Source: Psammoneis japonica (lineage: Eukaryota). Taken from it: a stretch of 64,000 nt of DNA. This document shows, piece after piece, positions 10,033-56,425 of this stretch. The notes under the pieces were generated by a model. It was given only the letters and a program-made list of their open reading frames with translations. It was not told the origin of the DNA and made no database searches. How positions within the stretch are numbered: position 1 is the first letter of the stretch; each line of letters starts with the position of its first letter. The position numbers and the translations under genes were made by a program. Location: positions 248,001-312,000 of the forward strand of contig QPGO01000044.1 of NCBI GenBank assembly GCA_008632985.1, written 5' to 3'.

Positions 10033-10329
10033 CTGTCAACAGTGAAGTCTTTTTCTCATTTTGCCCTGCACTGCAATTGCAGTTGACAGAAAAACTTGAC
10101 AGAGACTGGGATTGTTCCCAGTTGACTGACAAAAACAGAGAAAAAGAGAGCTGCAAGCAAGAGCAGTGAACTGGGTTGTGTCATGGCATCAGCAAAGGAG
10201 TGAGACCATGTGATTGCTGAGATCAAGATTTGGCAATCTAATGGCAACAATTAGAGACAAAAGCAGGAGAACCCTTAGAAAGGACCATTGGGTGATTGCA
10301 TTTTTGATCCTGGACAATGAGTGAAGCAT

Positions 10330-24620: not shown

Positions 24621-25076
24621 GGATGGAGGGCCCCACCGTGTTGATCTTGCAACTGTCGTCACATTGTTTGTTTCAACGGCGGGGCAGCGGTGCGTCAGCC
24701 GTTGAAAATCGCTCTATGATATATTATTAAATATAAGAATGAATGAAATTTTATATTATTTTTTCTCCTTAATGTACTTCCACATGACTGTAGATGGAGG
24801 CGAATCCAGCGCACGCGCCATTTCAACGCTCACCAATTTCAACGCAGCCGCACTTTTCCCTCTCGAAAGCAATCCCACATCGGGACGCCACATTTTCTCC
24901 TTTTCTATGCCAACTGAGCCACCATGAACGCCAACAAGTCGATCAAAATAGAATTGCAAGTCTCTGGTTGCATGTCTAATTCTCTTGATGCCGGAAAAAT
25001 AGGAGCCTTAGTCTCAGACGCCCTCAATAGCCATCCTTCAGAGCAAATTCGGTGTCTTCAATTTCAAGTATGTGAC

Positions 25077-27203: not shown

Positions 27204-27420
27204 ATGTACTCGTAATTAGAGACCAATAGTTCTTGAGAGTAGTCCAGCGTCCACAATACTATGTAGATCCTACGCTTCCTTAAAAAAAGCTATGCAATCG
27301 TCTACACGACTTCCATGATACTATTCAGAAGGAATGGCTTTTGCACTTGCTATGATGAGAAATCACGCATCTTGATCAACCATGTTCGGTATCGAGAAAG
27401 TAAGGCGAAAATTTGCTTTC

Positions 27421-28487: not shown

Positions 28488-28938
28488 ATGCGAATACGAC
28501 CAACAAGGAAGTTGACATGCTGTCTCTCAAAGCGGAAGAACTGGTGCAGCAGTTCACAAGGTTTGACAGTCAATTGTACGAAGCAACCGTTGAAATCTGG
28601 GGCGTTCCCAAAACGACTTTTTCTGACTAGAAGCACTTTGCTGAAGGATCAGGCTTGAGGTGTTGGAACATCAAAGACAAGGAGTGAGTGGATGAACACA
28701 AAACTGATTTTCAAATCGCGCAAAATGTACAAGAAGCGTCCTTACATTGAAATATGGTAGTTTTTGATCACAATACCCGCCTTGTGCAAAGCTCGTATTA
28801 TTACAAACATTCTAGCTTCTCTGATGATTCTAACAAATGGTGCATTCAGAAACAACTCACACTTGTCATCATCCTACAAGCTACCATTGTGAAGGGATCG
28901 GTAGCATTCACGGCTTTCTTATTTCATACAGCTAACAC

Positions 28939-30957
28939 TTACTGTCCAAGATAAATGGATGCCAGACCGACCGTCATGGCAATCACACCAAACAAAATAA
29001 AACCGATTGCAACAAGAAAGTCATATAGCTTCGGTTGCGAATCTTGGGGGTCATCCTCCACCGATTCGTCGTCTTCCACTTCCGTGTGATGCTTTGTCAA
29101 GGCGTCCTTCACTGCCGATTTCTTCTGGTTTCCGGCTGAAGAGACCGATCCATACCCAGAGACCTTGTCCGCATGCAGCACGGTCCCACTGCTGACGGCC
29201 AAGTCATCGGATACCCTTTGAGCACCCTTCATTCCGTGCAAGCTACTGCTAGTCGCCTGCTGCCGATCTCGTTGCGGCGCCAACACTTTTCTAGTCACCT
29301 TGACACGTGCTTTTGGAAGATTGTGATGCACAATTTTCCCTAGACGGCCGGGGTGAGGGCTCTTGAGTGCTTCTGTTTCAAAGTGCTTTTCCAAACAAGC
29401 TTGTCCGATTTGTGCAATACGTACCCATAGGGGCATTAGGAGAGCATACCAAACCGCAGTTCCAACGCAGGTTTTGAGTGGATTCTTCCCACTCCTAGAA
29501 GGTTCCTGTTGTAGTGATGAAGGTTCACTGCTAGAAATGGGATGAAGCACGGTTGCTTCAACATCAGGAGCATCATCTCTAGTCAACTCATCCTCCTCGA
29601 GACGATTTCCCCATGTCCACCCTTGTACCACAAGATGAAGAAATTCCTCTCCGTGAATCGCCAGATAGGCGGTTCCAGGTCCGATATAGCTGAGAAAGGA
29701 CCCCGCAATGGATCCGGTAATGGCCAACACAACGCCCAAATCCCTCAACAAGAGCGCCGGTATCAGCGTGATTAAGATCATTCCCACTGTGAGTGCAATA
29801 CGCCGGTCTCGTCGTGCCAGCACCGCGTGGTCGTCACCCTCGTGAGCACGCCGTCCTTGAAATAGCAACACGACACAAACGTGCCGCGACACAAAGGCGT
29901 CCATGGGGTAGACAAAAAACATGCAACAGCAAAGCATGACGCGAGATGCATTACAGAGCTTCATGAGCAACGGATCGTCGCCAATGGTCTGGAAATTGTT
30001 CAAAACGTTGCCTTCCGTCTCGCCAAGGAAACCCAGATATCCAAATACTCCACAAATCGTCGCAAGCGTACCAGAGAACAAGAGTGCCGTGCGAGTCACT
30101 TGAGACCACCGTTGCTTGGTGGGGTGCTTTAATGAGCCTGCAATAATGAAAGCCGAGTGCTGACAAACATAGGCAAAGCTCAATACCCCAAGTCCGGTAA
30201 AAAAGGTTTCGGGTCGAATTATGTCTTCGGAGACTGTCTCTTTCCAACCTCCATTGGCTTGCACCGTCTGGGGGATTGGACTATTGAAAACCACAAACAC
30301 GACAATGAGCAAGTAAAACGCGACTGAAACCTTGGATGTTTTCGCCAAGTCGGCCATGTCGCGTTGGGCACTGAGTGGAAACAAAATAATTATCGTGGTG
30401 GCCACCAGCACGGCACGACGAGTGTAGTAATCGTCCTCATCAATCAACAAAAGATTGCTTATCGTGTCCTTCATAATCATCATGTACGACACCATGGCAC
30501 CATAACTCATGGACCACATGAAGAGACTCATGGCAACAAAGCCACCACGGCCAAAGGATGCTTCGTATAAAACCTCATAGGACGGAACATCAATGTGTTT
30601 GGCCGTTTCAATCAAGAGCCGGAGCGATTTTTCTGTAATGAGCGCACAAAACACAACCATGACAATGCCGGCTATGAGTCCTGACTCTTTAATCGCAAAG
30701 GGAATTCCAACAATTCCCGCGCCGACAATGGATACTATAAGATTGGCGCTCGCACCCAAGATTGTAGATTTGTGCTCAGCCTCATCCTCGACTTTTCGCA
30801 TGTGCACCGTCCCACCCGGTGTCGACATGCGTTTTAACGCCCGCGGATCGGAGGGTCGAAAAAAGGGACTTTTGGCGACCTTCACGCTTCTCTTGCGGCC
30901 GTCCTCCGTCGTGGCGACGGCCGTGTAAGAGCCACGCTGAGCTCCTCCAAGAACCAT
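28939..30957 (-). CDS. Amino acid transporter, Aa_trans/SLC38A11-like
   Basis: NLIVSIVGAGIVGIPFAIKESG, LSFAYVCQHSAF, FFVYPMDAFVSR; many TM segments; ATG at 30957. Confidence 0.92.
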   Translation of the reverse strand: MVLGGAQRGSYTAVATTEDGRKRSVKVAKSPFFRPSDPRALKRMSTPGGTVHMRKVEDEAEHKSTILGASANLIVSIVGAGIVGIPFAIKESGLIAGIVMVVFCALITEKSLRLLIETAKHIDVPSYEVLYEASFGRGGFVAMSLFMWSMSYGAMVSYMMIMKDTISNLLLIDEDDYYTRRAVLVATTIIILFPLSAQRDMADLAKTSKVSVAFYLLIVVFVVFNSPIPQTVQANGGWKETVSEDIIRPETFFTGLGVLSFAYVCQHSAFIIAGSLKHPTKQRWSQVTRTALLFSGTLATICGVFGYLGFLGETEGNVLNNFQTIGDDPLLMKLCNASRVMLCCCMFFVYPMDAFVSRHVCVVLLFQGRRAHEGDDHAVLARRDRRIALTVGMILITLIPALLLRDLGVVLAITGSIAGSFLSYIGPGTAYLAIHGEEFLHLVVQGWTWGNRLEEDELTRDDAPDVEATVLHPISSSEPSSLQQEPSRSGKNPLKTCVGTAVWYALLMPLWVRIAQIGQACLEKHFETEALKSPHPGRLGKIVHHNLPKARVKVTRKVLAPQRDRQQATSSSLHGMKGAQRVSDDLAVSSGTVLHADKVSGYGSVSSAGNQKKSAVKDALTKHHTEVEDDESVEDDPQDSQPKLYDFLVAIGFILFGVIAMTVGLASIYLGQ

Positions 30958-31334
30958 GATTTCAGGAATCAACAATATAGTGGAAATCAACAAGCGGCGA
31001 TACTGTTAGCTTCTTCCTTCCACTGTATTTGATACGTTTTAAAAAGGAGAGGAAGAGATGAGTGATTATAGAAAGGCGAGTTGCGTCTCGAACGTCAATG
31101 TGTGGTGTCAACAGCAACAGAGCAAATCAAAAAAATGAAAATGAGAAACGAGAATAATGAGAATGCACCATGATGCGATGCGATGGAGCGATGGATGATG
31201 GATGATGCGATGTTGCGTGATAGATGCGCGTTACCGGTATGAGACCCGACCCGTGCTTCGCTTCCACGTGTAATTAAATCGTCTGTCAATCGGGCGTCTA
31301 CTCTAGCTAGAGGTAGAGTAGTAGACGGGAGATT

Positions 31335-31336
<2 letters not shown>

Positions 31337-31367
<31 letters not shown>
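31337..31367. repeat. (TC)n microsatellite flanked by ctactctagcta motifs
   Basis: Directly visible. Confidence 0.95.
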
Positions 31368-31368
<1 letters not shown>

Positions 31369-31908
31369 GGCCCTACTCTACTCTAGCTAAGTTAGGTAGC
31401 TAGTAGCGCTTGCACGGATTTGCATTGTGCTCCACCTCATCTTGCGTGGTTTGACAGGTTCTCTCTGCCACCCAGGATTTGACTGGACTTTTTTTCACTT
31501 CAAGACGCATGTCATGCTTCGTGTTGAATGGACATCACTGGGGATGAAGCTTTGAGCGTTTCTCAAAGTGGTGGCATGATGAAACTCAAAAATCGGCTTT
31601 TGTCACGCCACACTTGCGCTCGACACTTTGACTATAAAGAACAAAGAGCCTGGTAAGAAAGCGTTATGAGAATCATCGGATTGAACGTGTTGGTTTCCTT
31701 ATGATTGCGGATGGTGTAACGATCTGTCGGAAGAATAGTGTTAGTGGACGTGACATGCAGTGGAAATTATCACTGGTTTTGCTACGTTACTAGCTAGAAG
31801 ACCAAAAAATATCCAGACTGGCTATAACTAGCTTTGCTAGGTTGCTGGTTACAAGACAAAAATCCAGACTGGCTTACAAGTACGAGGAGCAGATCCAACA
31901 CATGTGGT

Positions 31909-34696
31909 TTACATGTAAACTATACCCGCGTACTCATCATCAAAGGAGCGACCATCCGTTCGCCACACCTGGTAAAGTATCCCTGGGCTTTGTACGGCAA
32001 ATAACATAAACTTTTTGTCGGGACTGAATGCGATTCCAGAGGTTTCGCCACCACCGGAAGACTGTTCTACAACTGTAAACCACCGTCCCTCAATGGTGCG
32101 ACCGTGAATGCCGTTGCGACTCGCTTCTTCGGTGAAATATAGAATCGGGTATATCGGGTTGCCAAATGAATCGTATTGAAAACGTAGCTGGTCTGGCGTT
32201 CCCTGAAAGTTCCCACGTCGTGTGGTAGTCTTTGTCCATCGTTCTCGATCAAGATCAAGAATAAACAACTCTTTTTGCCTCTTGCTGACGAAATAAAGTT
32301 TGCCATCATGGTGCTCAATACCTTCCACAAACTTGAATCTACTTCGAGCGGACGACTCGCCGTCTCTCTTTCTACTAGACCACCGGAATGAGCCATCACC
32401 GTTGAGTACTAGCCATCGTCGTTCACCATTTCGATCATTTAACATATCCCACTGCTCACTAGGTTCAGTGGTGATTGTAGATGCTGTCGGAATAAATCTT
32501 CCAAGCGGCCCATTTTCTCTATCGTTAGTGAAGAAAAACTTTGGTCTCGAGGGATCTCGCACGTCATAAGCAAAACTTTCATACGCATCTGGACCATCGC
32601 CAACAGATGTCAACTCAGCAGTGCGATCCTCCCAAGGATCAACCTGCCAGATTCCTCGGCCTCTCCCTGATTCTTCCATACTCATGAAAGAACCCCATGG
32701 AGTACCGGCAGCACCTGTTTTCGATTTCGAGACAAATCAACGAACTTGTGACCTAAAGCGATAAAAGGTATGAAGGAAGTCAAAAGTATCTGGGCAATCC
32801 TTACCACAGTTCCTTCTTGTACCAGAAAGGAGCTGCTTGTGCCCAATTATTTTCGCATCGCTGTCAAAGTAGATGCCTTGAACACCACCGTTTCCATCGT
32901 TCTCAGAATTGGTCAGATATGCAAAGCGGTTAGATCCGTCCGGATGACGAAAACATTCTCCACCGTCTGGCAGCGAGTGGAAGTTCCGGCTCGACAAACT
33001 CCCATCTCCGAATCTTATTCTATTTCCTGTTCGTGCAATCATCCGAATTTCTAGTCCTCGAGAAAGTCGAAACCCCAGAGCCTGTTTTGACAAGTCCCCA
33101 GGTCTGTACGTAATTGGCAATGTATTCGGGCACATTGTGTCTTCACACTTCGTACTAAAGCCCTGAAAAACGCCATCGAGTTTGTTTCTGCACTGAAAGC
33201 TCTTGGTAGTGACGCAGCTTCCCGACTTCAGACAACAAGCTCCTTCGACACCACAGCGATTGGCATGACAAACCTTTTTAGCAAGATTCGTAAAATTTTT
33301 GTTGTTAGATTCCAAACCTTATCAGCAAACGAAAAAAAAAACAATTTGCTGACTCATACCGTGTCATCACCCTGGTAAACGCCATCTACGAGTTTGCAAG
33401 AAGCCTTAGAAATCTTGTTGCAAATTCTTTCAGTCTTTGAGCAGCATGCCCCCTTCCTTTGTGGAGTGACAAGACACGAGGCATCCTCACAGGTTGTGCC
33501 GAAACCCTGGAATATTCCACTCAGCTTGTTTTGGCATTGGTAGGTCTTGCTGTTTGGGATGCAACTTCCCGACTCCAAGCAGCACGCGCCTTCTACTTTG
33601 CACTGGTTATCGTGGCAAAACTAAAATAAGAAGCGAAGAAAATTCTGTTAGATGCTACACCACCTCCTTTCTTGGAATACGGCTGCGACGGATTCTTACC
33701 GTGCCATCACCTTTGTAAACTCCATTGGAAATTTGACAAGTAGACTCAGAGATTCTGTTGCACTTCTTCTCCACCTTTGAACAACACGCTCCAATCGCAT
33801 TAGGGGTAACAGGACATGATCCGTTCTCACACGCAGTGCCGTAACCCTGGAATGTACCACCAAGATTGATCATGCAATCAAATAGCTTTGTTTCGGGGAT
33901 ACAACTGCCCGACTGCAAGCAGCAAGCCCCTCCCACAGGGCAGGTACCAGTATCACAGGCCTATACACAACCAGAAGATTAAAGGCTTTTAGTGTCTCAG
34001 GCACATTTTGTCCTCAGTAATAAGACAACAAATTGCACAAACCGTGTCATCGCCTTGGTAAACCCCGTCGGAACTGTCGCAAGAGTCCTCCGTAAGTATG
34101 TTGCATTGTTGTCTAAATTTTGAGCAACATGCTCCTCCTTTGGGACATGTTTCTTCTAAACATGTCGTGCTGTACCCTTGGAACGTACCACCAAGTTTGT
34201 TTTGGCATCGAAAAATCCGGCTGTCGTTGACGCATGTACCCGATGGCAAGCAGCAGGCTCCTTCGATGCTACAACGAGCAGAATGACATTTCTGAAAAAG
34301 AAGGTTTGTCGAAGAAGCGCAATTTTAGCCTCGCATTGTGCAATCAATTATTTGTCAACGAGTCGTCGTACTTACTGTGTCGTCACCCTGATACACACCA
34401 TCAGAGCTTTCGCACGCCGCCTCTGAGATCACGTTGCATTCTTTGACGAACTTTGAACAACACGCTCCTGTCTTTTCATCCATTAGACTGACATTAGGAA
34501 CTAATATCAAAGGATGCCCACCACTTGTCGTTAGATCACGCTCGAGTGGTCTGTCACTTTTCTTCAGGCCCATTGCATTTTGGTTACTGCTTGTTCGGAA
34601 CTGGCTAGCAATCGCCACCAGAAACGCGACAACCGAGGCAGTTCCAACAAGGGACGCTAGCCATGGTAAAGCCTTCATTGTTCCCGAATGCTTCAT
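31909..34696 (-). CDS. Membrane-anchored protein: GACC Cys-rich repeats plus PhoX/DUF839-type alkaline phosphatase domain, multi-exon (5' end uncertain)
   Basis: N-terminal TM (WLASLVGTASVVAFLVAIA). Repeat exons end in QGDDT|GT. Splicing out 32804-32715 gives RRNCGAAGTPWGSFMSMEE (cf. PhoX NCAGGxTPWGTxLxCEE). Also LPDGG, LTNSE, TPDQL, ETSGIAFSPD. Confidence 0.85.
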
Positions 34697-34799
34697 TTGT
34701 TCCAAATGAATGGCTTGAGCAGCGAGGCTTTATGATATGACCCGCAACAAAAAATCAGAAATGGACACTGAACCTGTGGGGGGGGGGACTCATCGCGGC

Positions 34800-36510
34800 A
34801 AAAATTTAAAAAAAAGAAACACGACTGAGGTGAGAGACACAACATACACATGACCGAACATCTTTATCTTTCTCGTGGATTTTGAAAAATCAGCTCGTCG
34901 ACCGTTGAAAGTTTGGTGCGTGCGTTGAGATGATTCACGGTTTTTGCTGGGGAAATGCGGATTGCGAGCAGCAGACTGCTGAGTGCACACTGCATGCCAG
35001 TGTGCGCCAGCAGGAGGTGGTTTTTGAAGCGTTGAGAAAGAAGACAAAATGGTTTGTTCGTGTCACATGGCTCACTGCACACCAGGGGCAGCTTCCAGGA
35101 AAGCACACGTGCTGCAGCGCAACATCACACAACTGTTTGTCTTTCATTCCACATGGTGTGTGTCATCACCAAAAAGGTTGCAAATGACAGAACATTGATT
35201 GTTCTTGAGCAGCGTGATGCTCTGCACAGCATTTGCTTCTCACCAGTCATCCTGAACAAATGCGGCGCACATCAAAACCTGACAACAACACAGTGGAGTT
35301 GTGAGGAGAGACTGGGGCAACAAGGTCACAGCCAGCAAAGCCCATTGCATCAGCTCTCCAACATCTAACACACTTCTTGATGCCACTGCTGTGCATTGAA
35401 AAAAGCAAGCATGAGATGCCTCGCTCTTCTTTTTTGCAGCATGAGAGGCAGAGCTTGTTTCACACTAGTGCTGCTGCACCCAATGTCATTTTTATTGTCA
35501 TGCAAAAGCAGATTCAAGCATGTTTAATTGTGAGTTTCCATTGTTGCACAGTGCATGTGCATGGTTGGCATGCATCTGGAATGTGGCCATTGCAGTGGCA
35601 AGTTTCAGTCCAGTCGCACACCTTTCAGCCCTGGGAATGGCCCAAAAAAAGTCTTGTCTGCATCTGAGAGGGTTTTGGAATGGAGAGCATTGGGTGTCCT
35701 CATGTCAAGGCTGTGTGCCAAAGCCCACCTGACAAAATGCCATTGTGTCAATCCCGCTGCCATTCAATCGGGTGTCATCTCAAGGCCCAGCAGCTGACAA
35801 TGCCATGTTGTGCCAGCCACCCCGCTGCCATGTAAACTGCACATTTGAGCACCTCACTTGCCTTGTGGGACAACACCTTTGCTTGCCTTCATTTGTGAAC
35901 ACACCAAATCATGGATGTGTGTTGACCCACGCGCGGCTCTTCCTCAAGACTTGGGCCAACAGAGCTCTGCACACAAGCTCGGCTCAGTTCACACATGCTC
36001 AGCAATGAAACACAACATTTGTCTTCAACATCCGAACAAATGACCAAGTTTGCAGCACAGTTTTGCACACCTCTTGGCTCTCAAGGTTTTTGAAAAATAA
36101 AAAAATGCTGCCAGCAACCAAAGCTTGTTGAGTGGACAGAGCCTGACAACAACTGCAGGCCACCACAAAACAGTGCAAAATGCCACCAAAGTCATGAAGA
36201 AATGCACATGCACAGCAAGTGGTGCACGACAAAAAAGTCAACATCACAGCCCAGCAGCATGAGAGGCCCCACCCGCACACAGAGCAGCAGCACATCAGAG
36301 CATGTGTTGTCAGCTGCCACCACCTTGGTTGACTGCACTCTTGCTTTGAGGCTTCAGATGTTGGATGCAAGCATGCACAATTGAGCTCACAATGATCGCT
36401 GCAAAAGAGACAAAAGTAAAAAAAATGGTGTCAACAGTTCTGTTGCAGCGCATCACATTTTGGACAAAGAGTGTGATTTGGGACGGACCACTCGAAAAGT
36501 TTTGAAAAAA
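34800..36510 (-). mobile_element. Degenerate repeat block, possibly a hAT transposase remnant
   Basis: TpA-depleted block. The minus strand near 35510-35550 reads ..NSQLNMLESAF, resembling the hAT TRWNSxxxML motif. No TIRs established. Confidence 0.35.
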
Positions 36511-43450: not shown

Positions 43451-44094
43451 CCATTATGAGTTAGCCAGGGTGGGGCTAGTTGGTCACGCACGTTTGGGTT
43501 CGATGTGACTGTGCAACTAGCCATGCCCTGGAGGAAAAGCTGTTGGTGGATTGGGTGGCGCGCGAGTGCCGGCAGCAACGCAACAAAGCAAAAAAACACG
43601 GCGTGGGTCAAAAAACATTGTAAAATGACATGACAACAAGCGATGAGAAGAAACCCAACTTGACCCAGGAATGAAGCACACAAATGTTGTCCAGCGGCTT
43701 TGATCTTGTCTGGAAATGCACTCTCGTAGATCCGCGAACGGCACTCACGTTGCTTGCCATGGTGTTGTCATGTGTTGTCGTGTGCTGTTGTTGTGCGAGA
43801 AGGACGGGGCACCAGGGCCAACTAATTGCAAAGTTTTCTGCGGCAATCAGATTGCAGTCAGTCGATTGCATCGCTGTGGAACAGCAACCATCCAACTGCG
43901 GTCGCGCAGCGATTGCACGGTCTGACAAACAGACTGCAATCGGGCTGCAATCACCCTGCCGGCCAGGCGTGCCCCCTGCACAGGGGCGCTCTCTGCACAA
44001 GAGCACACTCCGCGCAGGAGAAAAGCCCACCGCAGGCAAAGAAATCAAGCTGTTTTGCTTGTTTTGGCGACGCGCTCCAGGTCCAGGTGGGACC

Positions 44095-44366
44095 TGACAG
44101 AAATTGAAGGCAAATGGCAAGAATTCAAACAATGACTCCTTGCTGCTGTCTAAACAGCAGATGAGTCTCCGCTCAGAGACCGTTGCAGGAGCCGAAAGAC
44201 GTGCAAGTCGGTGCAATCGGGCTGCTGTTGTCATTCTTGTGAGCCTTGTGGCTCGAAAGCAAACTGCATCGCGCGCGAACGCGCGGAACTAAAGCACACA
44301 AAACTGTGCACGGCAAACTAAACAGCGCGATTTCGCGCGCACCTGAATCCTGTTCAAATCCTGTCA
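44095..44366 (-). repeat. 3' LTR of the Copia element (272 bp)
   Basis: Matches 48781-49056 apart from four substitution sites and one 4-bp length difference. Confidence 0.96.
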
Positions 44367-44419
44367 CTCCCCAGTTTGCTTGAGGAGCCACAGAAACAGG
44401 TTCGACTTTGGATGGAATG

Positions 44420-47400
44420 AAGTTCCAGAACATGAGGGGGCGGAGAAGGTCCCAGACTTGGGAGTGACCCCAATGCTTGCTGAGAAAGTCAGCAGGGTTG
44501 CGGGAGCCTTCGATGAAGTGGAGCTCAAGGTGACCAGAGGCAATTGCCTCACGCACACGGTGGAACGACAGTGCGGTGTGTCACTTGTGTGACTTGGAGT
44601 GCGGGATGGTGGCACTGTCTACAACCGACTTGTTGTCACCGAACATGCAACTGACATTGCGGATCGGGATGCCAAGGTGGCGCAGGGTGATGCACAGGTC
44701 GACAATCTGCTCGACACAAGTCCTTGCGGCAACAAATTCAGACCCGCAGGTCGCAGTCTCCACGGTGGCTTGCTTCTTGGAGAACCAATCAGCCGGGAAT
44801 TTGTTGAGGAAGTGGAGCATTCCCATGATGGAGCATCCGGTGAGCATGCAATGGCACAAGTTTGCATCGACGCAGTGGGTGGCAGTGACGAACTTGCCAA
44901 GGGGCGGTGGAGCATCCTTCGGGATCATCTCCTCTGCTTCGCTGTGCATGGAATGCATCCATTCACAGGCCGGAGCAGGGAGATCCGAGTGGTCGGGCTC
45001 TTCCGTGCGAACGCAGAGAGCGCCATGTCGCATCTTGGAGAGGTGCCCACAGATGCGTTTGGCACGATCCAAGTGGCCTTGACGGGGCGCAGCTCGGAAG
45101 CTAGAGAGTGACATGACGGCCGTGGTGATGTCAATTCGACCAAGGGACACTGCCCATTGGAGTGAACCAACAAGAGACTGGAACTTGTGAATGCCATCGG
45201 GCCCCAGCAGTTCGGAAGTGTCCAGTTCGGGGTGGTCACCCTTCTCCAGAGGTGACAGGGCGTTGGTGGCAGGTTTCTCCCCAAACAGTCGGGTGCAGCT
45301 GTCGACCATGCGCTCGATGCACTTGCGCGGAGACAGGCACAAGGTGCCATCGGGATCCCGGGAAAAGTCGCAGCCCAGATGGAACTCAATGGGTCCCGCA
45401 CCCTTGAGCTTGAACTTGCACTTTTCCGCGAGAGTGTCGACGAAAGATTGAGGGTCCTTCACAGCAATGGCGAGGTCATCCACGCCGTTCCTGCGCATCC
45501 AAATGTCAGGTTCGGTGCGGCAGGGGAAGAAGCCTTCAGCTCGTGGGCAGTCGGCAAAGCGCTCGTGCCAGCGGAGACCGGAGCTGCGCAGTCCATGCAG
45601 GGCCTTGTGGATGACAAGGATGTGTCCTTCGAGTTTGCCAAATTCGGGTCCGGCTACAATGTAGAGCTTCTCCTTGGTGGTGGCTTCAAGGTGGGCATTG
45701 CCAATGTTGGTGGCCCATGTCTCCAACTCGTTGAGTTCGGCCAGGAAAATCATCAGCCGAAGGCCACGGAGGGAGACTGCTCCGGAGTAGACACCATCGA
45801 TGGGTACGTCCGTGAGGTGCCCATCGGCTGCGAGTCGTGCCTTGTGGCGACCGTCGTGTTTCATGTCGCACACCAGGTGCACTTGGATCTTCTTGTGTCC
45901 TGCAGGAGGAGTGGAAGACTCGAAGGGCCCGCAGTCATGGAAGACTTCGTATTCTTCGAGTTGGTCCATCTCGAGATTAGTTGCGTCTCCCCATTTGCAG
46001 TTGCCCTTGCGTTCGTCTAGTGACATGGCATGTTTGCAGTTCCGGGGAACTTTGCATCCGCACTTGCAGCGAGGTGCAGTGCAGAAGGAGCGAAGCTTGG
46101 CTTGGTTGGCCATGCGGAACAGCTTCTTCTGGTGCCTTGCGATGGTGCGGAACTGCTTCCAGCCATCAGTGTCGAGAAGTCCGTTCTCTCGTGCATAGAT
46201 GGCACAGGTGGCGGGGTCGTCCTTGGCGATGATGGCAAGAGGCTCGGACGTGATCTCCCCACTTTCCCATTCAAGCATGATGTTGTAGCTTGAGCTTTTC
46301 CAGGTTGGGTCATGAGGCTTCAGAGGTCCTTCGTGTGACACAATGCGTCGAAATTTCCAAACAGCAGTGTCTTCGTCTTCTTGCTCAATGTGATTCATGA
46401 TGTCGTTGCAGGCAAGGACTTCCTTGCATTGACCATTGTTGACAGAGCAGACGAACTCAGTGAGCTCGGGATTGCCGTTCACTTTCCATTCATGGTCTTC
46501 GACGGCCTTGACGATGCGAGCTCTGTGGCGTTGTCCATCCTCTTGTGGCTGCATGAGGAAGGTGCGTCCGATGATGTCTTGCGGATCGAAAACTGGCATC
46601 TTGGGTGTCCTGATCTCCCCATCAGGAGAATCGACGGGGTTGTCATCATGGTGAGATTTGATGATGGGTTCAGGTGGCTCCCCATCAGGAGGATCAAGAC
46701 GCAGGTTTTGAACGGCAGGATCGGTGGTGGCGGATCATACGTTGGACCAGCAGAGGATCTTCTGAGTCTCGTCAGAGAGAATCTTGAAGGTCATCTGGTG
46801 GCCGACGTGCTCAGCAATGCCAACAAAGCGTCCACGCAACTCACGGGATTTGGACAGCCAATCGGAGTCATCGAGGTGGAAGTGCACGGGTTCCCACCAG
46901 TGAAAGCGAAGCAATGGGCTGATGTCCGGGGTGGAGCCAGTGAGAGTCTCGAGGGGTGTGCGCCAGTGGAGACGTGGGGACGCTGCATGGTTGAGCATGA
47001 AGCACACGCACATGAGCGCCAGCAGCCATGTGTGGGCAGGCGAACCGAAATGATCCATGACAGTGTTCGCCATGCACTTCACGGTCTGGTGTCGACGCTC
47101 GGCAAAGTTTTGGTGTTGCTGGTGAGGCTCACTTTGCCAGCTGGAGATGAAGAGGGCTCGCAGGATCCCGAGCACCTTGTTGCTGATCTCAACTTGAGCA
47201 CGGTCGCTGATGAGTTTGGATGGGGCACCACACTCACGGATCTGATCCTCGAGTGTGTTGACAAACTCTTTGTCCGTTTTGGTGCCGCAGACGTCAGTGA
47301 CGGCAGACTCGGTGCCAACAAACAGTTGGGCGCTGGTGCAACCAGAGTCGACGGCCGGGGTGTCGGCACAAACGGTGTCAGTGGCGATGGGCTCGTTGCG

Positions 47401-48780
47401 GCGGTGCACATTAAGGGCGGGGTTGGGCGATTTGCAGGCCTTCCTGAGGTGTGCACCGGTGGGCATGCGGGCGCACTGCGTGGTGCAGTCAAAAGTACGA
47501 TGGACCGCATCGGCAGGGAGGAAGCCAAAGCAAGGCCAAAGAGACTCGAAGGGGGGGTCCTTGGGCTGCACAGTGTGCTCCGGGGGCGGAACGTCGTCGT
47601 CCTTGGGGTCAATCGCGTGTAGATGACACTCGTAGAACACATCGTCGTTCGGAATGAGGTGATCATCGAGGGCGGACGCGTGATCGGCAGACAAGGAAGC
47701 GGACATGATGGTCTTGTTGACAACGACACGATGACAGCAGTTGCCGCATTCGTCAAATGGGTTGGCAGTGGGATCGTCCTGCAGGTCAGAGATCGCGTCG
47801 CACCACTGGTCGTCGTCAGTGACAGAGTGATCAAGGACGGAAGGATCCCATGTGTCATCACCGGTGAGGATGACATGGGGCAGGGTGTCCCATTCGGCGT
47901 CAGTGCAAGGTCGCATGGCAACATGAGGCAGGCCGCCCTTGATGTCAATGGGGATGACACAGCCATCAGGGGTGGCAATGCGTTGCAAGCCGTTGGGCAC
48001 CTTGACAGAGCGATCGTTGACATCCTGTTTGCACCATTCGAGCTGGCCGCAGGAATGAATGGTCTTGCCCTTTCCCGCATGTGTGCACTGATGGAGGATG
48101 GCGATGACGGGACCACGCTGGGTCTCAATGATGGCACCAGTGGTGACAATGGGGATGTCCACCAATTGATGGTCGTCAATGCCCTGAACGTCGACTTGGC
48201 AAGAGGTGCGTGCAATGACGCGAACGTCATCGCCAGCAATGCCGCCGTTGGCCCCACGATCGACTGGAGCACCAGCGCGTGTGGAGCGATGAGCAGAGGC
48301 AGAGTGAATGACATTGTGGTTGTCAACGCGGCGGTGAGTGCGGCCGTCAAGTTCTGTGTCATCGGCAGGAGCTGGCGAGGTAGAGGGAGCGGCGGATGGC
48401 CCTGGTCGACTGGCGTTGGGGGCTTGGTTAGGAGACAACAGACGTTGCAGATCACCGGGTGGCAGTGGCTTGCGCTTGGTGAGGTGCTCCAGGATGGGAT
48501 TGTCCAAAGTGGCATCCACATTTGGAGCGGGGTCACCAGAGTCAGCAGGAGTCTTGTTGGACAAGTTGACATCACCGTCACTCCCAAGGCGTTGGTCGTG
48601 AAGGTTGGCCGCAACGGACTCATGGCAGTTGCTGGCTCGCGGGTTGCGGGGAGGCGGACGAGAATGCTCGAGGATGATCGCCTTGGAGGAATGGGGCAAC
48701 GAATCCCAAATCCGTTGGTGGTCGGGAGGGAGACGTTTCCATTGGTCACCAGTGAGGCTGGGACCACGGGTGCAGGCATC
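44420..48780 (-). pseudogene. Copia gag-end/pol polyprotein, inactivated
   Basis: ORFs 46735-48699 and 44581-46599 plus the RNase H tail. TGA stops lie at positions normally Arg (SNV*SA, HK*HTALS). The segment before the RT YVDD motif is missing (WMRRNG-VDDLAI). Confidence 0.92.
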
Positions 48781-49056
48781 TGACAGAAATTGAAGGCAAA
48801 TGGCAAGAATTCAAACAACAACTCCTTGCTGCTGTCTAAACAGCAGATGAGTCTCCGCTCAGAGACCGTTGCAGGAGCCGAAAGACGTGCAAGTCGGTGC
48901 AATCGGGCTGCTGTTGTCATTCTTGTGAGCCTTGTGGCTCGAAAGCAAACCACATCGCGCGCGAACGCGCGGAACTGAAGCACACAAAACTGTGCACGGT
49001 AAACTAAACAGCGCGCGACATTTCGCGCGCACCTGAATCCTGTTCAAATCCTGTCA
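48781..49056 (-). repeat. 5' LTR of the Copia element (276 bp)
   Basis: Direct repeat of 44095-44366. Confidence 0.96.
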
Positions 49057-50066
49057 GGACCTTGCACTGCTGAACTGTGACATCGACAGTTTTTTGAATT
49101 GAGTTGTGTGTCGCGCACGCACATTTCTACGTGATTTTGGCAAAATTTTGCATCATTTTACAGTGCAATTGTCGGGCGATCCACTCAACAACTTTTAATG
49201 TTTTTTTCTTCTGCGCCATTCTCGAGTGTCTCAAGAATGGCACAGGGCAGGCACGTTGTCCAAAACTTTGAGTGCAAACAGAGACACATGTGCCACAAAC
49301 TTGGCCATGTGTTTTGTGTTGAAGACAAATGTGTCCATTGACCAGAGTGCGAACTGCAGAGCTCGCACGTGGAATTCCACGGGGCAAATGTCACAAAAAG
49401 TCCCACCTGGGGCTGGAACCCGTCTGGCCACAAAAAGAGCTCGAATTTCAATTGCGACGTGTTCCAGCCGCACGTGAACCAAATCGTGCACTAAAACGAC
49501 ATTTGCGCGATTTTTGCGCGGTCCCTAACTTACGATCGAACTTTCACCACCAAAAGTATAGATTTATACAAATATAAATGTTCTGCAACACTAACAAGAC
49601 TCGTGTGAGTATTGCAATATCATTGTTATTGTGCTGTCTATGTTTTTCATTGCGTTAAAAGATTCGTAACACACGGATGATTTTCGGCGAAAATATTGCC
49701 GTTATTTGGATGTTAACTAAATATATCTTTCTACGATGCTACTTGGTAGGTTTTCTACCTACAAAAAAATCTCAGTATAAATCTACTGACGTACAATCAG
49801 TATTGAGTCTACTGAGGAAGTTTATGATACATATCCCATGAGGATTTGAATACCCCTCAAAAAACTATATAAATGTCCATACTCTAGAAGCTTATAAAAG
49901 TCAATCCGTCTAAGTATTTTTATTTTAAAATGCTATATACACTAAAATATACATAAATTACATTCAAAATCCGATTGTCGTTTTGTGCGTCACCTGGGAC
50001 TGGAACACGTCTTGCAATCAATTGCAACAGTTGATTGTGATTGCGACCTTGGCTCTTTCCCGACAA

Positions 50067-52375
50067 TCAGGTCATGACGGGTTCCAGTCCTGGGCGGGAC
50101 TTTTTGTGACATTGGGCTCGTAGAATTCTGCGTGTGAGCTCCGCAGCAAAATTGTCAAGCAATGGACATGTGGATGATCGCCAACAGAAAAAGAGGCAAT
50201 TTTGCGAACGCATCTCCTCCTCCACACTTGAAGCACACATCAAAGAATGCAGCCAGTGCATTTTTGTTGTCATGAGTGCAGACAACAGAAAGCCTTTGGC
50301 TTCGCAAAACAGGCAGTGTGGAACAAATTTTTGTGACAGAACACACAGAAATGTGTGCCAAAACATGCGACAGATGACAAAAAATGATTGTGTCACAGTT
50401 CAGTGGTGCAAGGTCCCACCCAGAGCTGGAACGCGTCTCATTGCAATCAAGTTTGCAACAGCGATTGCAGTCAAAGTGAGGCTGATTGCAGCCGATCCCA
50501 GCAATTGGCCAACACTGCGGGGCGCTGTTTTGCCAACAGCCACTCTGTTTTGGCAATGGTGGATGTTCAGCTGTGTGCAATCTGGGAACAATTTGAGAAG
50601 CGCTTCGCGACAACCCTGTTCAGACCGTCAAACAGAAATTTTTTTGTTCAGATTCTAAAATGTGTTTCGGGGTGTTTCTCACTTTTTTGAATTTGGGTGT
50701 GTGTCTTTGCAAGACCTTGGAAATGTCAATGACATGCAAAACCCTGAGAGACCAACATGAATTCATCTTTCATGTGGACCACATGCATTGTGCACCGGCA
50801 GAAAATCCACCGCATGTCAGCTCACTCAGCAGCAATTCCATGTGTGTTTTACTTGCATCTCACACACGCACACACGCCTGCACAGTCCAATGACCACGCA
50901 CACGTGCATGAGATGATGTGTCAATGGGAATCATCCGGGTCCTGAGAGTCATCACGTAGAAATTGTGTGGGAGAGCACTAAAAATGATTGTTGTCAGTCT
51001 GTCCATCTGTCCATGTGCGAATGTCAACTTGTCGGGAAATCAACTGAAATGCTGTCTGATTGACAGCATTTTGATTCACACAGTGAAGGCCAATGCTGTC
51101 AGTCAGACGGCATTTCAATTCAGTTCCCGAAAAGTTGTTAGCTCCAATCACTCTCTCGCATGACATTGTGTGCATTTCCACACGATTTTGTGTTTTTCCT
51201 TGTGCAAAAGATCAATTGTGACCCACGCGACATTTTCAAATGATTCCCATTGACTCGAATCACATTTTGTTGAAACGCCACCTTTGCTCAAACACGTCAT
51301 GTTTGAGAAAACGGGCTCAATGTTTGAGGAATTGCTCGAACTTTGCGCAACTTTGAGCACTTGCTCAAACTTGCTGCTCAAACTTGGCAAGTTTGAGCAA
51401 ACACTCAAACTTGCACAAAGCTTGAGCAAATGCTCAAACATGTGAAATTGATGCCACCGGTGCTGCACCAGTGTGAAACCGCTGTGCAGCACTGGCCTGC
51501 CACACCGCACATGCTGTGCGCACTGCGACTGCTGCTTTCACTGCATGCAGGTGTCAGCACAAATCAAGTGCAATGGAAATGAGGTGTCAGCCGTCAGTGA
51601 CAAACAACAAAATCACAACCATCACACCATGGTGACACAAAAGATGATTTTTCTCTACGACAACACCTTCAAGAAACCCAACATTCCATTGAAAGACATG
51701 TGATGCAAACTCATGCACGAAAATGTTGAAAGTTCCAGCAGAACAGGCTTGTTGAGGGGGCTGCGGGGACCAACAAGGAACAGTGTCACGCAACAACATT
51801 TTGTCTTTTGTTTCAATCAAAAACATTTTTCAAAGCATGCCTTGGCATTGACATGTGCTAAAATGTCAACATTCACTGCAAATTGCCAAAGCGCCTTCGA
51901 TCGCTCCAAAGAGGAAATTTTCCATTCATTGCCAGTTTGTGCCAGGCTGCATGGAAAAGTGCAGCCGACATGCTCCAGCTCCAGGTGGGACCTTGCACCA
52001 CTGAGCTGTGACACAATTGCTTTTTGTCATCCGTTGCATGTTTCGCGTGCACATTTCTGCTTGTTTTGTTGTGAAAAATTGTTCCACACTGCCTGCTTTT
52101 GTGAAGCCAAAGGCTTTCTGTCATCTGCGTTCTGCATTTGTGACAACAAAAATGCACTGGGTGTGTTCTTCAACGACTGAAAAGAACATGCCCGGACATG
52201 CTGTGAAGAATGTGCTTCAAGTGTGGAGGAGGAGATGCATTCGCAAAATTGCCTCTTTTTCTGTTGGTGATCATTGATGTGTTCATTGCTTTGTGATTTT
52301 ACTGCGGAGCTCGCTCGCAGAATTCTGCGGGCCCAATGTCACAAAAAGTCCCGCCTGGGACCACAACCTGTCAGC
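50067..52375. mobile_element. Non-autonomous element with ~400-bp inverted terminal repeats; a third copy of the same repeat (44065-44094 + 49057-49430) is the Copia target
   Basis: 50067-50450 is the reverse complement of about 51960-52375 (gggcgggactttttgtgacattgggc vs gcccaatgtcacaaaaagtcccgcc). Confidence 0.75.
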
Positions 52376-52399
52376 CATCACATTTTCTCCCTCCAACAA

Positions 52400-55300
52400 T
52401 CAACTGCATGCACAAACAAACAAGGAGCAAAGTGCAATGACAGGCAATGGCAATGCAACGATGTCATCATGATGCAAGCAGGGAGGAGACGCAAGCGTCC
52501 AGTGGCAAGAACAGCGGTGCGAGCAACCCAACATCCAACATTTGGGCAAGGCCATGCTTGCGGCCATGGCTTTTGCATTGCGGCCGTGGCCGCCATGGAC
52601 TCGGGGCAGAATCAGCCCTTGTCATTTGGTGGCCACAGCAAAGGTGAGAGCATCCAAGCAATGGGACAATTTTTGGTTGAATGCATCAACGACGAGAGCT
52701 TGGCCATCTTCGTTGATTCGAACGACAAGGAAATTGTCGTGCAAAAGTGCTCTGAGGGTGTGATGATGCGTTCATGCTCACGCTCTGTTGCCGCTGTTTC
52801 CAATTTTCTGTTGGAGTGGAGTGCACAAGAAACCAAAGTCAGTTTTTTTTCTGCTCTAGATCTCTGTCAGTGCTGCACTCTCTGCCAGCAGCAGCAATTG
52901 TGGTCAAGCAATTCAGCCCACTTGTCAGTTTGTTCTGCTCCAGATGTGTCAGCACTGCACTCTCTGTCAGCAATTGCAGTCAAGCAACCACACTTTGAGC
53001 CACAGCACTCAGTGTCTCTAAAGCAATGTGATCCACCCCCTTGCAGATCATGCCCAGAAACAGTTCACTCAACAACAGACCCATCCGAAGTTGCACCAGG
53101 ATTCATCCGCAGAGCACTGGAAATCAGGATCTCAGATTTTACCGGGTCGTCAAGAAGCACAGATGGATGATGCCCGGCTCTCACTTCATTGGCTTCACTG
53201 ACATCGGCAAATGGGTGAGCATTGGTGTCAACCACTCCAAGCATTTCTCCAGCTCCAATCACCCAGAGACCTGTCAATGAGGCACTCATGCATTTTCATC
53301 TCTGGGCTTCTGTGAGGGCGAGAAGGGGTGACCAGATCCAGCGGGTCTTGGCTTGAACCACCAGCAGGAGGACAATGGAGAAAGCTGCCCTCATGAGGAC
53401 ATGGATGAATGGCCTGCCACAGTTCCTCAGATTTGGATGGTCCACGGGCTGCAGCAGGAAATGATGCACCAGCTGTGGCACCTCTGTGATCAGTTGCAAC
53501 CTGCTGGACGGTGGGCGGAACAGCGTTGGCAGCCCCACCACCCCGTTGTGGTGCAGCCACCCCATCAAAGGGGTTCACCACATTGCTGGGTCCAATCTCA
53601 AATGACGCTTGAGGCAATCCAAACTTGTCCTGCTTGTGACACCCAAACTGGGATTCGCGCCATTGATGGCATTCATGTGACCAAGCATGCGTGCCATCTT
53701 GGTCGCCAGCACAGAGAATGGCTTTCAACAAGACACAACAAAAGACATGAGTTAAGAGAAGCAGAAAAGAGCACTGCAAAAGCACAACACTGCGTGTGAT
53801 TGCTTGCTTTTGTTGCTGCATCGCATCCACAGTGGCAAACTGGACAGAGGCAGTCTCCATTCTCGTCCAAGCCGTGACGTTCTCCAGTGGCATCATCAAT
53901 GCATTTGAGCAGGCATTCTGCAACAGGAACTTCTCCAGTGATCAATGGCCATTTCCATTTGGCTCATCAACAGTGGAATGGCCACAGTGGTGACAATTGC
54001 GGTTCACCTCGTCCTCCGGTGTCGATCCTTCAAACAGAAGCTCTTTGGCCATCAGAGACACCACCTTGGCCTGTTCTTCATGCAATGCTGTGTGGTGAGC
54101 TGCAGTTTTCTTTGATGACACAAGATCCTTCACTTCAGCAGTGGCCTTTGTCACTGGGTGTGCATGCCCGGGCATGAGTGGTGCGCAGCTCTTTCTTCCA
54201 CACGCAATCAAGTTGGCACACCATTCAATTCCAGCAACATGCTGTTGCAGTGGGAACAGCTCCAAAGATGGTCTTGTTTAGAGATGCAACAAACAAAGGA
54301 GTGCATTTCCAGTGTGCTTCAATGATGGGAGCATTCTCCATGCCAATCCTCTTCTCGACTTCCGCTTTGTTTGCAATGAAAATCACGGTGAGCTTCTTCT
54401 TTTCTGCCACCATGCCACAGCTCGGTTTCCTCAGCTCGTCAAGCATTTTGTTCTTGGAAGGTCCTTCCACATCACAATGCTTGACATCACATCATGTTTC
54501 GGTGTTTGACTCGCATGCATGGACGCAGTTGTGCATGGCGTTTGTGGCCATGGTCGATCTGCTGTTGCGGCATGTTTTGTTTTGCCCAAGTTTTGCCAGT
54601 CAAGCAGCGCGCAGGAAGATTGTGTGTCTTTCTACGTGGCCTGGTGCAAACAAGCTGATGAAAGGAAATTTTCCTCTTCAGGGCAATCAAAGACACTTTG
54701 CGCACGAAAAGTGACAAGTGTTTGGCAATTTGCAGTGTTGTTCCAAGTCAAAAACATGTCAAATGGATCATCAGCAAGTGCCGGCATTAGACCATCTTCA
54801 TGTTGTCGTCACAGCCCCGTGCGTCATCGTGCCAACATGGATTTTTTGTTTTTTGCACATGTTTGAGCAATTGCTCAAACTTTCATGACCGTTGAATGTT
54901 GCTCAGTGTGGCATCCATTGTGATTGCGCGCACGTGCGTTTGAGCAGTTTTCCCACATGGTGCTGGTGGGTTCTTGTGTCGACCATCAACGCACGCATGA
55001 GCATGAATCATCATCTGCTCTGCCGCTCTTGTTTGACCAGCTGGTTGGTTGTTGACCCCAACCACCACCAGTGGAACAAGATGAGACCAATGTCAGAGAT
55101 CTTCATTTCAAGAACAGCACATCACATTGTTCAAAAACTTTCATTGTGCAAATGCCACATTTTGGGCATGTCCAAGGAACAAAACCAGCACAAACTCGAG
55201 CATGCTTCTTGCATGTGTGCGCTCAACACACCCTGCCCAGAAAATGTCAGGGAGTCGTCTCTCCCATCTGTTGTGCCACTCATCACATCAATTGTGGAAA

Positions 55301-56425
55301 CCCAGTGTGCTGCCACTCCCTCCAAAAGTTTGCACCTTGTGTCTTGTGCTGCTCTGATTTTTTTCAAACAACTGCTGTTGACACCATTTTGAGATTGTTT
55401 GAGTCATGCTTTGTCAGACCCACATGATGTGCTGCAAGCAACCTCAGCTCTCTGCTCAACTGCCACAAAACTTCTGTGCACAGCCAATGATGTGTTCAAT
55501 CTTGCAGACCAGGATCTGCTTGAGGTGGGATTGTCAAGTGCCAGCCGTCATGCAAGTGCCAGCTCTCTCATGCTGTCAAGCTGGCTCATGACCACACCAC
55601 TTCCTTCTGCTTGTCAAACAAGATTGTTTTCCACTGTGGCTGACTGAACTTGACCTTGTTGCTGTCTTCATCACAAGTGTCTCTTGACAAAAATGCCAGC
55701 CATGATGTGCTCCTTTGTCATGCTCACAAAAGAGTGCCACCCTGTGCAACAGAAGCTTTTGCAAGGCTGTCAAAAGTTGCACACAACAATCTTGACACCA
55801 CATGGCACAACTCTGCTGCAAGATCTTGTGGCATTGCAGCAGCAGCAGTTTTGCAATGAACTGCTTCATCCAACTGAGTGTTGCTCCTGCTTCACTCTCA
55901 AGCTGTTTTCACTTTCAAGAAGAAATCAGTGGAGCAGCCAACATCTTTTCTGTGCAGTCATTTCTCTTCTGGCATTTGAACATGCAAGTGCACTTGCACT
56001 TTTGTGCAATTCAGGGCTGCTGTGGAACCTGCTCAGCAGCAAAAGAAAAAAAAGGCGTGCGGCCGTGGGGGCTTCTTTTGTTGAGACACAAATGGGTTTT
56101 GCATCAGCAGCAGGGGGGCTGTGTGGGATGTGAGCACAGTGCTGTGCAATGCATGGTCATGGGTGGGCCCAGTTGTTGTTGTGAGAAATAATCCCATCAC
56201 CATGACATGGAAGCACGCTGAAATTTGAGAGACATTTGCAACAGAAAAAAGACACTGGAAACAAAAAGGACGGAGCGTTCTTGGATCTGGTGGAAGATCA
56301 ACACAAGTGACAAAAGAAAAAACTTGGAAGACTGCTCAAAATGCAAAAGGATGCTAGAGACAAAAAAGAAGAACATCCAGCAGTTAAATGAAGCCACAAA
56401 GGAATCAACAATTTTCTGCTGTGCA
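52400..56425. other. Unidentified TpA-depleted block, probably decayed mobile or viral-like coding DNA
   Basis: Same dinucleotide signature as the identified TEs; protein-like fragments but no motif I can assign. Confidence 0.4.

Follow-up and report, generated by a model that had tools for sequence, protein, structure and literature searches.

The region under study, positions 44367–48780 of the window (the whole analyzed stretch of 64,000 nucleotides from Psammoneis japonica), is the interior of a Copia element and raises the question of which process has removed nearly all of its TpA dinucleotides while most CpG was left in place. The preliminary description had proposed two separate processes, of which TpA loss is the faster and therefore probably enzymatic. 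The features of the window used below are as follows (o/e values of TA and CG are given for blocks).

4201–21500, no strand: old repeat block (4.4–21.5 kb), TA 0.069, CG 0.157
16965–18771, plus strand: decayed Gypsy-type pol remnant with weak RVT_1, Integrase_H2C2, and rve matches, all under the Pfam cut-off
22401–24700, no strand: TA-poor block, TA 0.05, CG 0.30
24900–34500, no strand: host gene region, control, TA 0.56, CG 0.93
34701–36500, no strand: TA-poor block, TA 0.10, CG 0.38
44090–44094, plus strand: left copy of the target-site duplication GGACC (right copy, 49057–49061)
44095–44366, minus strand: left (3') LTR of the Copia element, with 6 substitutions and a 4-base indel relative to the other LTR
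44367–48780, minus strand: Copia interior, the exact interior between the LTRs, with an RVT_2 match
48781–49056, minus strand: right (5') LTR of the Copia element
49062–49424, no strand: the bulk of a ~410-bp repeat, non-coding and with inverted ends, probably MITE-like; 3 TA are left in 49058–49430
50001–56400, no strand: intermediate repeat block, TA 0.04, CG 0.44

The element shows the hallmarks of the Ty1/Copia group, namely, LTRs of the TG..CA type, a 5-bp target duplication, the RVT_2 match, and an integrase that we take to precede the reverse transcriptase, judging by motifs in the translation and not by a Pfam match. The copy is not intact, being ~2.15 kb shorter than its sister copies (LTR spacing of 4686 versus 6772–6861 in 15 of 17 sister pairs). 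Its insertion point is the left end (44069–44094) of the ~410-bp repeat, and contig joints that skip either the Copia element alone or the whole insertion exist at this site. The interior contains 18 TA, whereas 1000 base shuffles gave 199.5 on average and never fewer than 158, which rules out chance. With o/e values of 0.09 for TA and 0.78 for CG, it is indeed CG-dense and largely devoid of TA, as initially described. CGA>TGA events were also rightly called few: the pol-homologous frame (44410–48765) has two in-frame TGA stops (44581–44583 and 46735–46737), and nine TCG>TCA changes were counted in any frame. Among TA-class sites of the interior, 84 of 101 (83%) are changed, and all six substitutions between the two LTRs fall at four TA-class sites. 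CG-class sites have become TG or CA in 74 of 354 cases (21%), so CpG decay is not negligible.

The old repeat block is low in both dinucleotides, in agreement with the preliminary description. A DNA search with window positions 6500–8000 returned the self-match only, so only the Gypsy part of this block was polarized, through a protein search; compared with younger relatives, the remnant has lost 125 of 128 TA sites and 94 of 101 CG sites. Within the intermediate block, the ~410-bp repeat occurs as two inverted copies (50075–50437 and 51967–52373). Of 58 ORFs in the TA-poor blocks of the window, 3 have a Pfam match. No viral insertion was identified; TA-poor DNA-methylase repeats had no viral match in Pfam. 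Three gene regions show o/e values of 0.56–0.65 for TA and 0.93–1.03 for CG. A duplicated gene segment in the control region (27405–28486 and 28931–30091, 77% identical) retains TA; at this identity it may sit under any pairing threshold for homology-triggered mutation. In a composition sample drawn from large contigs only (of 20 fixed-position stretches, one did not exist), 58 of 190 1-kb windows (~30%) were TA-poor.

The direction and timing of the change were assessed using related copies. Twenty long stretches were available; L045 (LTRs opposite in orientation) and L050 (single LTR) were excluded from the full alignment, and L043 (three LTR hits), L045, and L050 from the set of LTR pairs. 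Multi-copy sites (n = 799) fall into 229 with TA/CA/TG and 568 with CG/CA/TG, and two sites contain both parents. Of 28 positions with a tyrosine conserved in 120 homologs, 4 still encode Tyr, while 12 now encode Cys and 9 His; in the same comparison, Arg survives at 34 of 43 positions, and the remaining residues are unchanged at 461 of 512. In 18 LTR pairs, each of them flanked by a target duplication, at least 189 of 370 TA sites and at least 75 of 734 CG sites are changed, versus 25 differences across 3338 other columns. These differences date the TA change after insertion. The starting TA o/e was ~0.64, so the low TA was not inherited. The same change is seen in a Gypsy family and in the non-coding ~410-bp repeat, and the presence of both TpG and CpA products means that both strands are hit. 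An assembly artefact is implausible since the products differ between the two LTRs of a single copy. In contigs from DNA run X1, 59 of the 64 listed places are transitions, but this run is possibly the source sample itself and thus gives no independent support. No RNA run was listed among those containing the sequence.

According to the alignment of 19 Copia copies, TA has become TG or CA at 3098 of 4208 sites, and 1809 of 10,456 CG sites are changed. The resulting TA/CG hazard ratio is 7.0 (95% bootstrap 6.1–8.1), or 11.1 (9.8–12.6) without subfamily-shared CG alleles; in young Gypsy copies it is ~13. As a time-averaged ratio, TpA change is ~130–190 times faster than other base changes. In the ~410-bp repeat the ratio is weaker, with TA lost at 333 of 445 sites (635 of 747 including CA/TG-only sites) versus CG at 294 of 718, and several of these CG-class sites are doubtful, having only 1–3 CG copies each. 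These data bear out the claim of two separate processes with faster TpA loss per site, and progress of both at one rate was not seen: none of the 190 sampled windows combined CG < 0.6 with TA ≥ 0.45. In addition, at least four environmental Copia contigs have low CG (0.22–0.43) and TA of ~0.5, which indicates that the two processes can occur apart; 2 of 79 environmental Copia contigs carry the TpA signature.

The contrast of young and old elements in the preliminary description proved too simple, because at equal or higher CG loss the copies show an almost twofold spread of TA loss. L041 has lost 52% of TA and 23% of CG, L036 83% and 18%, and the copies as a whole span 44–85% TA loss at 12–23% CG loss. 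TA loss is therefore no clean age clock. The correlation of TA loss with other divergence in Copia is negative (rho −0.66 and −0.45) and is not taken as an age trend, since the "other" branch lengths contain subfamily structure. The spread among copies could also reflect locus rather than time.

As for site context, the TA hazard by 3' base is 1.16/1.22 for C/T versus 0.53/0.61 for A/G in Copia, and 0.61/0.54 versus 0.32/0.27 in Gypsy. TAY is thus preferred and YTAR spared, which is independently confirmed in the old block, where 75% of the TA still present are YTAR and 0% RTAY. No specific preference for G at +2 was found (TACG 1.39 versus TACT 1.41; Gypsy, 0.52 versus 0.72). A>G changes outside TA are rare (2–4 per 1000 copy-sites), and no strand-coordinated runs of TA changes were detected (z −0.6 to 1.5). 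In the aligned pol regions of the 19 copies, 36 of 40 in-frame stops are TGA; the loss of TAA and TAG leaves long spurious open frames.

These observations leave hardly any doubt that transposon copies, once inserted, undergo A:T to G:C transitions in their DNA, and only at TpA. Its targeting to silenced repeat chromatin is probable, because genes are spared, as is the 5' end in some copies. On the strand with the changed adenine, TA becomes TG, preferably with a pyrimidine next; either strand is affected, at single sites. TA loss approaches a floor of resistant YTAR sites with most CpG left, and CpG decay then goes on, giving an L-shaped path. The least certain step is the enzyme: a host TadA/ADAT2-family deaminase may convert adenine to hypoxanthine on transiently single-stranded DNA, and hypoxanthine would be fixed as G upon replication. 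Tyrosine codons would be destroyed, and the outcome would resemble a RIP-like defence.

We infer that the process is enzymatic. The speed of TpA loss, from which this had initially been concluded, does not establish it, since speed alone fits a deaminase, a miscoding TpA-specific modified base, or an error-prone polymerase. The TAY context favors a deaminase, since base editors derived from TadA work best on TAY (PMC10879117). Engineered TadA is reported to edit CAT, GAC, and GAT well too (PMC10879117), so that the requirement for T is far stricter here, given the rarity of A>G outside TA. The genome contains an ADAT2-like and a TadA-like gene as candidates, and two A_deamin paralogs may be considered as well. 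ADAT2 is a housekeeping tRNA enzyme of nearly all eukaryotes, and its presence therefore predicts nothing. The presence of Endonuclease V counts against deamination, as do the lack of a specific G preference at +2 and the absence of strand-coordinated runs, which would be expected from a processive deaminase acting on single strands. In its favor, an MPG/AAG glycosylase gave no match in a single search of a single assembly, with the control positive in 4 of 14 genomes. Taken together, the whole chain, in which a TadA/ADAT2-type enzyme deaminates A to I in silenced DNA, has roughly an even chance of being correct.

The strongest competitor, which we consider possible but rather unlikely, is a writer enzyme that marks repeat TpA symmetrically, with oxidized thymine such as 5hmU or 5fU or with a modified adenine, the mark then miscoding or decaying as a faster twin of 5mCpG decay. 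It would account for the near-absolute dinucleotide specificity and mirrors CpG decay in its palindromic dinucleotide and independent events on either strand without runs. Seen from the pyrimidine strand, the preferred context becomes RTA, and a 5' purine is also partly favored in CpG decay (ACG 0.10–0.15 versus CCG 0.04–0.07). Against this, we know of no natural mark that decays ~10 times faster than 5mC. Transposons of dinoflagellates are reported to carry 5hmU (PMC11572971), which speaks for such a mark, but 6mA is described as little mutagenic and Phaeodactylum tricornutum as carrying only 5mC (10.1101/2024.10.28.620566). Searches of the genome for TET/JBP and MT-A70 gave no match and are uninformative, since their controls matched nowhere. 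Already weakened, and improbable in our estimation, is the refilling of repair patches in methylated repeats, for example at 5mC-derived T:G mismatches, by an error-prone polymerase of the Pol eta/iota type placing G opposite T at TpA. TA and CG loss are indeed weakly coupled along copies (rho 0.18, p = 0.015, 185 segments; CG loss of 11–12% in TA-hit versus 8–9% in TA-spared segments), and outside TpA there is a slight T>C excess in Copia (T>C 71/20,980 versus C>T 79/36,442, p = 0.008) that is not repeated in Gypsy (p = 0.82). However, distance to the nearest CG site has no effect on TA loss, clusters on one strand are absent, and ~50% of TA is lost while CG loss is 5%. The motif of Pol eta is WA, which predicts ApA loss, whereas AA o/e is 1.22 in TA-poor and 1.13 in normal windows.

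Strict dinucleotide specificity and single events on both strands would also follow if a biased mismatch glycosylase or endonuclease of the very-short-patch type resolved T:G at TpA to C:G in repeats, fixing ordinary replication errors; E. coli Vsr, which depletes CTAG, is a precedent in outline. Capped by the supply of replication errors, such a system is hard to reconcile with rates >100 times background and 7–13 times CpG decay, and CTAG (0.37 kept) ranks among the contexts that are retained better in these copies, so we hold it to be very unlikely. Least of all do we expect that retroelement RNA or cDNA is edited from A to I and then copied into new insertions, or that the low TA stems from a TA-poor master element. 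At symmetric RTAY sites, Copia has a slight sense-strand excess (0.57, CI 0.51–0.63), as editing might leave, but Gypsy has no bias (0.52, CI 0.46–0.60) and in the non-coding ~410-bp repeat the two products are about equally frequent (163 CA, 170 TG). Both products occur at the same sites and, in 54 CA-versus-TG pairs, between the two LTRs of one copy. RNA-level editing as the main cause is refuted by the LTR-pair data, and an inherited TA-poor master is ruled out by the same pairs together with the starting TA o/e.

The process was compared with known systems. RIP is homology-triggered, premeiotic, and RID-dependent and converts CpA to TpA in strand-coordinated runs. The diatom process has the opposite direction, erasing TpA so that TA is depleted, not enriched, and it lacks such runs. 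CA>TA singletons are at background level (40/15,796), which together with the fate of tyrosines rules out the RIP direction. Ascomycete RIP (RID/DNMT4-related; PMC9998398) is alike in causing post-insertion, repeat-confined, dinucleotide-specific transitions that ruin coding capacity. CG methylation of diatom transposons is reported to depend on DNMT5a (PMC9998398); deamination of 5mCpG shares the target compartment, the TG/CA products, and independent events on both strands, and co-occurs in these copies, but differs in the parent dinucleotide and is 7–13 times slower. TadA-derived editors (PMC10879117) likewise make A>G changes in DNA with TAY as the best motif, but they are engineered, Cas9-targeted, and much looser in 5' specificity, whereas the diatom enzyme is conjectural.

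The closest counterpart is the rhizarian alga Bigelowiella natans, in which integrated NCLDV and virophage DNA is reported to undergo TpA>TpG/CpA hypermutation, with transposon domains among TpA-poor genes and an ADAT2-type deaminase proposed (bioRxiv 10.64898/2026.01.13.699255). In the literature searched, the signature was described solely in this preprint; no earlier report for diatoms was found, most subscription papers lying outside the reach of the search. The main text of the preprint contains neither "diatom" nor "CpG". The two cases share the substitution, the dinucleotide, both strands, and restriction to foreign or mobile DNA: in P. japonica, too, A:T>G:C is confined to TpA, both products occur, and host genes are spared. 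The 44–85% range of TA loss may correspond to the uneven activity among B. natans lineages or may reflect locus rather than time. The present case differs in the stramenopile host, ordinary transposons, near saturation in 58 of 190 kb, the comparison with CpG, and the TAY/YTAR context. The B. natans rate (~6e-7 per site per generation, ~1000-fold raised) was measured directly, whereas the diatom figures are time-averaged ratios only.

The rewriting of T-A steps in transposons to T-G or C-A ~10 times faster than C-G decay points to a targeted, B. natans-like DNA-mutating process. TpA hypermutation is the first mutational blow to a new transposon copy, about an order of magnitude ahead of CpG decay, which serves as an internal clock for timing it. 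It affects ~30% of the sampled kilobases. Transposon ages, LTR dating, and dN/dS will be wrong in such genomes unless TA and CG sites are both masked. Knockout experiments and in vitro assays could read out the process directly from its strict context and from the 5' ends that are spared. Should the cause be a deaminase, it would represent a naturally occurring A-to-G editor of DNA, an activity that base editing had to obtain by engineering. A broader reading, which we put forward tentatively and think somewhat more apt to fail than to hold, is that this diatom lineage has a dedicated DNA adenine-editing defence, in which a host deaminase at silenced transposons turns TAY into TGY genome-wide and insertions are killed by tyrosine loss well before CpG decay matters; the pathway would be common to Rhizaria and patchily kept across microbial eukaryotes. 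If true, adenine base editors would have a counterpart in nature, and RIP would have a second form directed at A.

The window lies in a eukaryotic assembly of 91 Mb (597 contigs), in which the named best matches of the host gene Maf1 were the diatoms Seminavis, Helicotheca and Chaetoceros. The element under study is a Copia retrotransposon:

44367-48780, minus strand: Copia interior
44095-44366 and 48781-49056, minus strand: Copia LTRs, with the target duplication GGACC

The LTR at 44095-44366 begins with TGACAG (44095-44100) and ends with CTGTCA (44361-44366). The element is approximately 2.15 kb shorter than its sister copies, contains two in-frame TGA stops and lies within a non-coding repeat of ~410 bp with inverted ends.

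The Copia interior contained 18 TA dinucleotides versus a mean of 199.5 and a minimum of 158 in 1000 shuffles. The observed/expected ratios (o/e) of TA and CG were 0.09 and 0.78 in the interior, 0.069 and 0.157 in the block at 4.4-21.5 kb, 0.04 and about 0.45 in the block at 50-56 kb, and 0.56-0.65 and 0.93-1.03 in three gene regions; CA/TG was raised correspondingly. These values confirm the preliminary description of a TA-poor, CG-rich Copia and an old block low in both. The old block is identified only in part, as Gypsy pol (16965-18771), where all Pfam matches from the TA-poor blocks were located (3 of 58 ORFs, all weak). It also contains a tandem array of ~180-bp repeats (19766-20692; 69-75% identity among units). 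Related internal repeats of ~340 bp (58-77% identity) at 600-2550 and 33128-34482 largely keep TA and CG (TA o/e 0.42-0.69), and these regions are probably repeat-containing host genes.

In 190 1-kb windows taken at fixed positions on 19 large contigs, TA was below 0.15 in 58, whose CG ranged from 0.02 to 0.84, and in all 28 windows with CG below 0.2; none of the 190 combined CG below 0.6 with TA of 0.45 or more. Together with the Copia and Gypsy copies, they trace the L-shaped path of TA against CG that had been predicted.

The direction of change was analyzed in 30 partial Copia copies (448 candidates, of which 40 were scored and the top 30 used) and in 18 near-full sister copies with the window copy. 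The sites separated cleanly into two classes: there were 229 TA/CA/TG sites, 568 CG/CA/TG sites and two with both parents. Compared with 120 database homologs, conserved Tyr was retained at only 4 of 28 positions (replaced by 12 Cys, 9 His, 2 Phe and 1 Trp), while Arg was kept at 34 of 43 and the remaining residues at 461 of 512; therefore, TA is the ancestral state. The initial TA o/e of the family was ~0.64. The 18 LTR pairs analyzed were each flanked by target duplications; post-insertion events in them numbered at minimum 189 in 370 TA-class LTR-sites and 75 in 734 that were CG-class, and the remaining 3338 columns showed 25 differences. All six substitutions between the LTRs of the window copy fell at TA-class sites, and the 20 shared CG were unaltered. 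Uniform-clock LTR dating would overstate age, since a number of positions in the LTRs belong to the TA class in sister copies.

In the pooled Copia copies, 1110 of 4208 TA and 8647 of 10,456 CG were kept, and other bases were altered at 0.85% per copy. The TA:CG hazard ratio was 7.0 (6.1-8.1), or 11.1 (9.8-12.6) after dropping CG alleles common to more than four copies, for copies chosen by similarity and with saturation at resistant sites depressing the ratio. Methylated CpG is expected to decay about 10 times faster than background per base; CpG decay here was ~10 times background, so the ratio is not a product of idle CpG. For Gypsy, the 17 best of 150 scored relatives were used, with the five TA-richest copies defining the sites. 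A further six young copies had lost 517/1037 TA, 40/797 CG and 37/9987 other sites (summed rows; ratio ~13), and four more diverged copies 84-87% of TA and 11-39% of CG; another diverged copy, L212, had lost only 48/169 TA. The old Gypsy remnant in the window, of another subfamily, had lost 125/128 TA and 94/101 CG. A smaller ratio was obtained for the 410-bp repeat. The proposal of two separate processes, with TpA loss the quicker, is thus borne out by measurement.

Among Copia copies, TA loss was 44-85% and CG loss 12-23% (rho 0.48 and 0.36); the two losses are not one clock. Six copies (L037, L038, L040, L041, L043 and L049) kept most TA in stretches, mostly near the 5' LTR end, and were hit elsewhere, which suggests that promoter chromatin protects these stretches. 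CG loss was 8-9% in them versus 11-12% elsewhere. TA loss in Copia copies showed no dependence on distance to a CG site.

An enzymatic origin of the TpA process is plausible. TA changed on both strands with little bias (sense share 0.57 in Copia, 0.52 in Gypsy), and editing at the RNA level is highly improbable as its source. Strand-coordinated runs were not seen in Copia copies (z -0.6 to 1.5). The hazard was doubled by a pyrimidine 3' of the A in Copia and Gypsy alike, and TA surviving in the old block was 75% YTAR and 0% RTAY versus 15-20% and 28-30% in genes. A>G outside TpA stayed close to the background, where this NAY bias was faintly indicated too (p 0.054 and 0.015), and the composition comparison of TA-poor DNA revealed no AA depletion. 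For TadA-derived editors, TAY is the motif that performs best (PMC10879117). Deaminase chemistry has about an even chance of underlying the change; a marked base at TpA that miscodes or decays is a distinctly less probable source, an error-prone polymerase an unlikely one and biased repair a very unlikely one.

According to the genome search, an ADAT2-like gene, Endonuclease V, several C5 methylases and a gene that is TadA-like by its motifs are present, and MPG was not found; the TET/JBP and MT-A70 searches gave no match, but neither did their positive controls, so these two absences carry no information. Gene presence makes no link from any enzyme to the TpA process. One ADAT1 per genome is usual; two genes with an ADAT1/ADAR-type editase domain (A_deamin) were detected, and the scanned frames contained no further Pfam domain:

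G000:C40:112674-113392: A_deamin gene
G000:C79:344558-345390: A_deamin gene

On G000:C79 (L067:313-1785, minus strand), a guanine-deaminase-like part and a 2OG-Fe(II) dioxygenase share a single open frame. Fungal thymine dioxygenase (E 1e-20) is among the solved structures most closely related to the dioxygenase, and the product probably serves base salvage. C5 DNA-methylase gene copies on G000:C297 and C301 (L056-L058, L062, L098-L105) lie in TA-poor repeat DNA (TA 0.07-0.11, CG 0.66-0.74; adjoining ORFs almost without Pfam match) and therefore seem to be carried by a mobile element. Methylase exons at G000:C34:43451-44164 (L059) are preceded, on their own strand, by a weak chromodomain match that narrowly misses the cut-off (E 2e-5), and they resemble the chromodomain forms of RID-related DNMT4, which many diatoms carry with unknown function (PMC9998398); the product is a possible targeting factor. 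Diatom transposons are described as CG-methylated islands dependent on DNMT5a (PMC9998398).

The same TpA>TpG/CpA change has been described in Bigelowiella natans, where it affects integrated viral sequences at a rate of ~6e-7 per site per generation; the authors proposed ADAT2 (10.64898/2026.01.13.699255), and the main text of this 2026 preprint makes no mention of diatoms or CpG. The diatom process is like that of B. natans in every feature decisively testable and is not RIP. A diatom report of TpA hypermutation was not found in the literature covered, with subscription journals largely outside it; this type of process is barely described so far.

In environmental Copia contigs, a sample biased to intact elements, Tyr>Cys/His replacement was seen in 2 of 79, and low CG with TA of about 0.5 in at least 4 of the 16 listed. 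The two metagenome contigs were L202 (TA 0.02, CG 0.44, Tyr kept 1/22; surviving TA 67% YTAR, 0% RTAY) and L192 (TA 0.31, Tyr kept 9/21). With identity of only ~64-65%, they are not copies of the window Copia family; since they carry the signature, the TpA process is wider than that family and probably extends beyond P. japonica.
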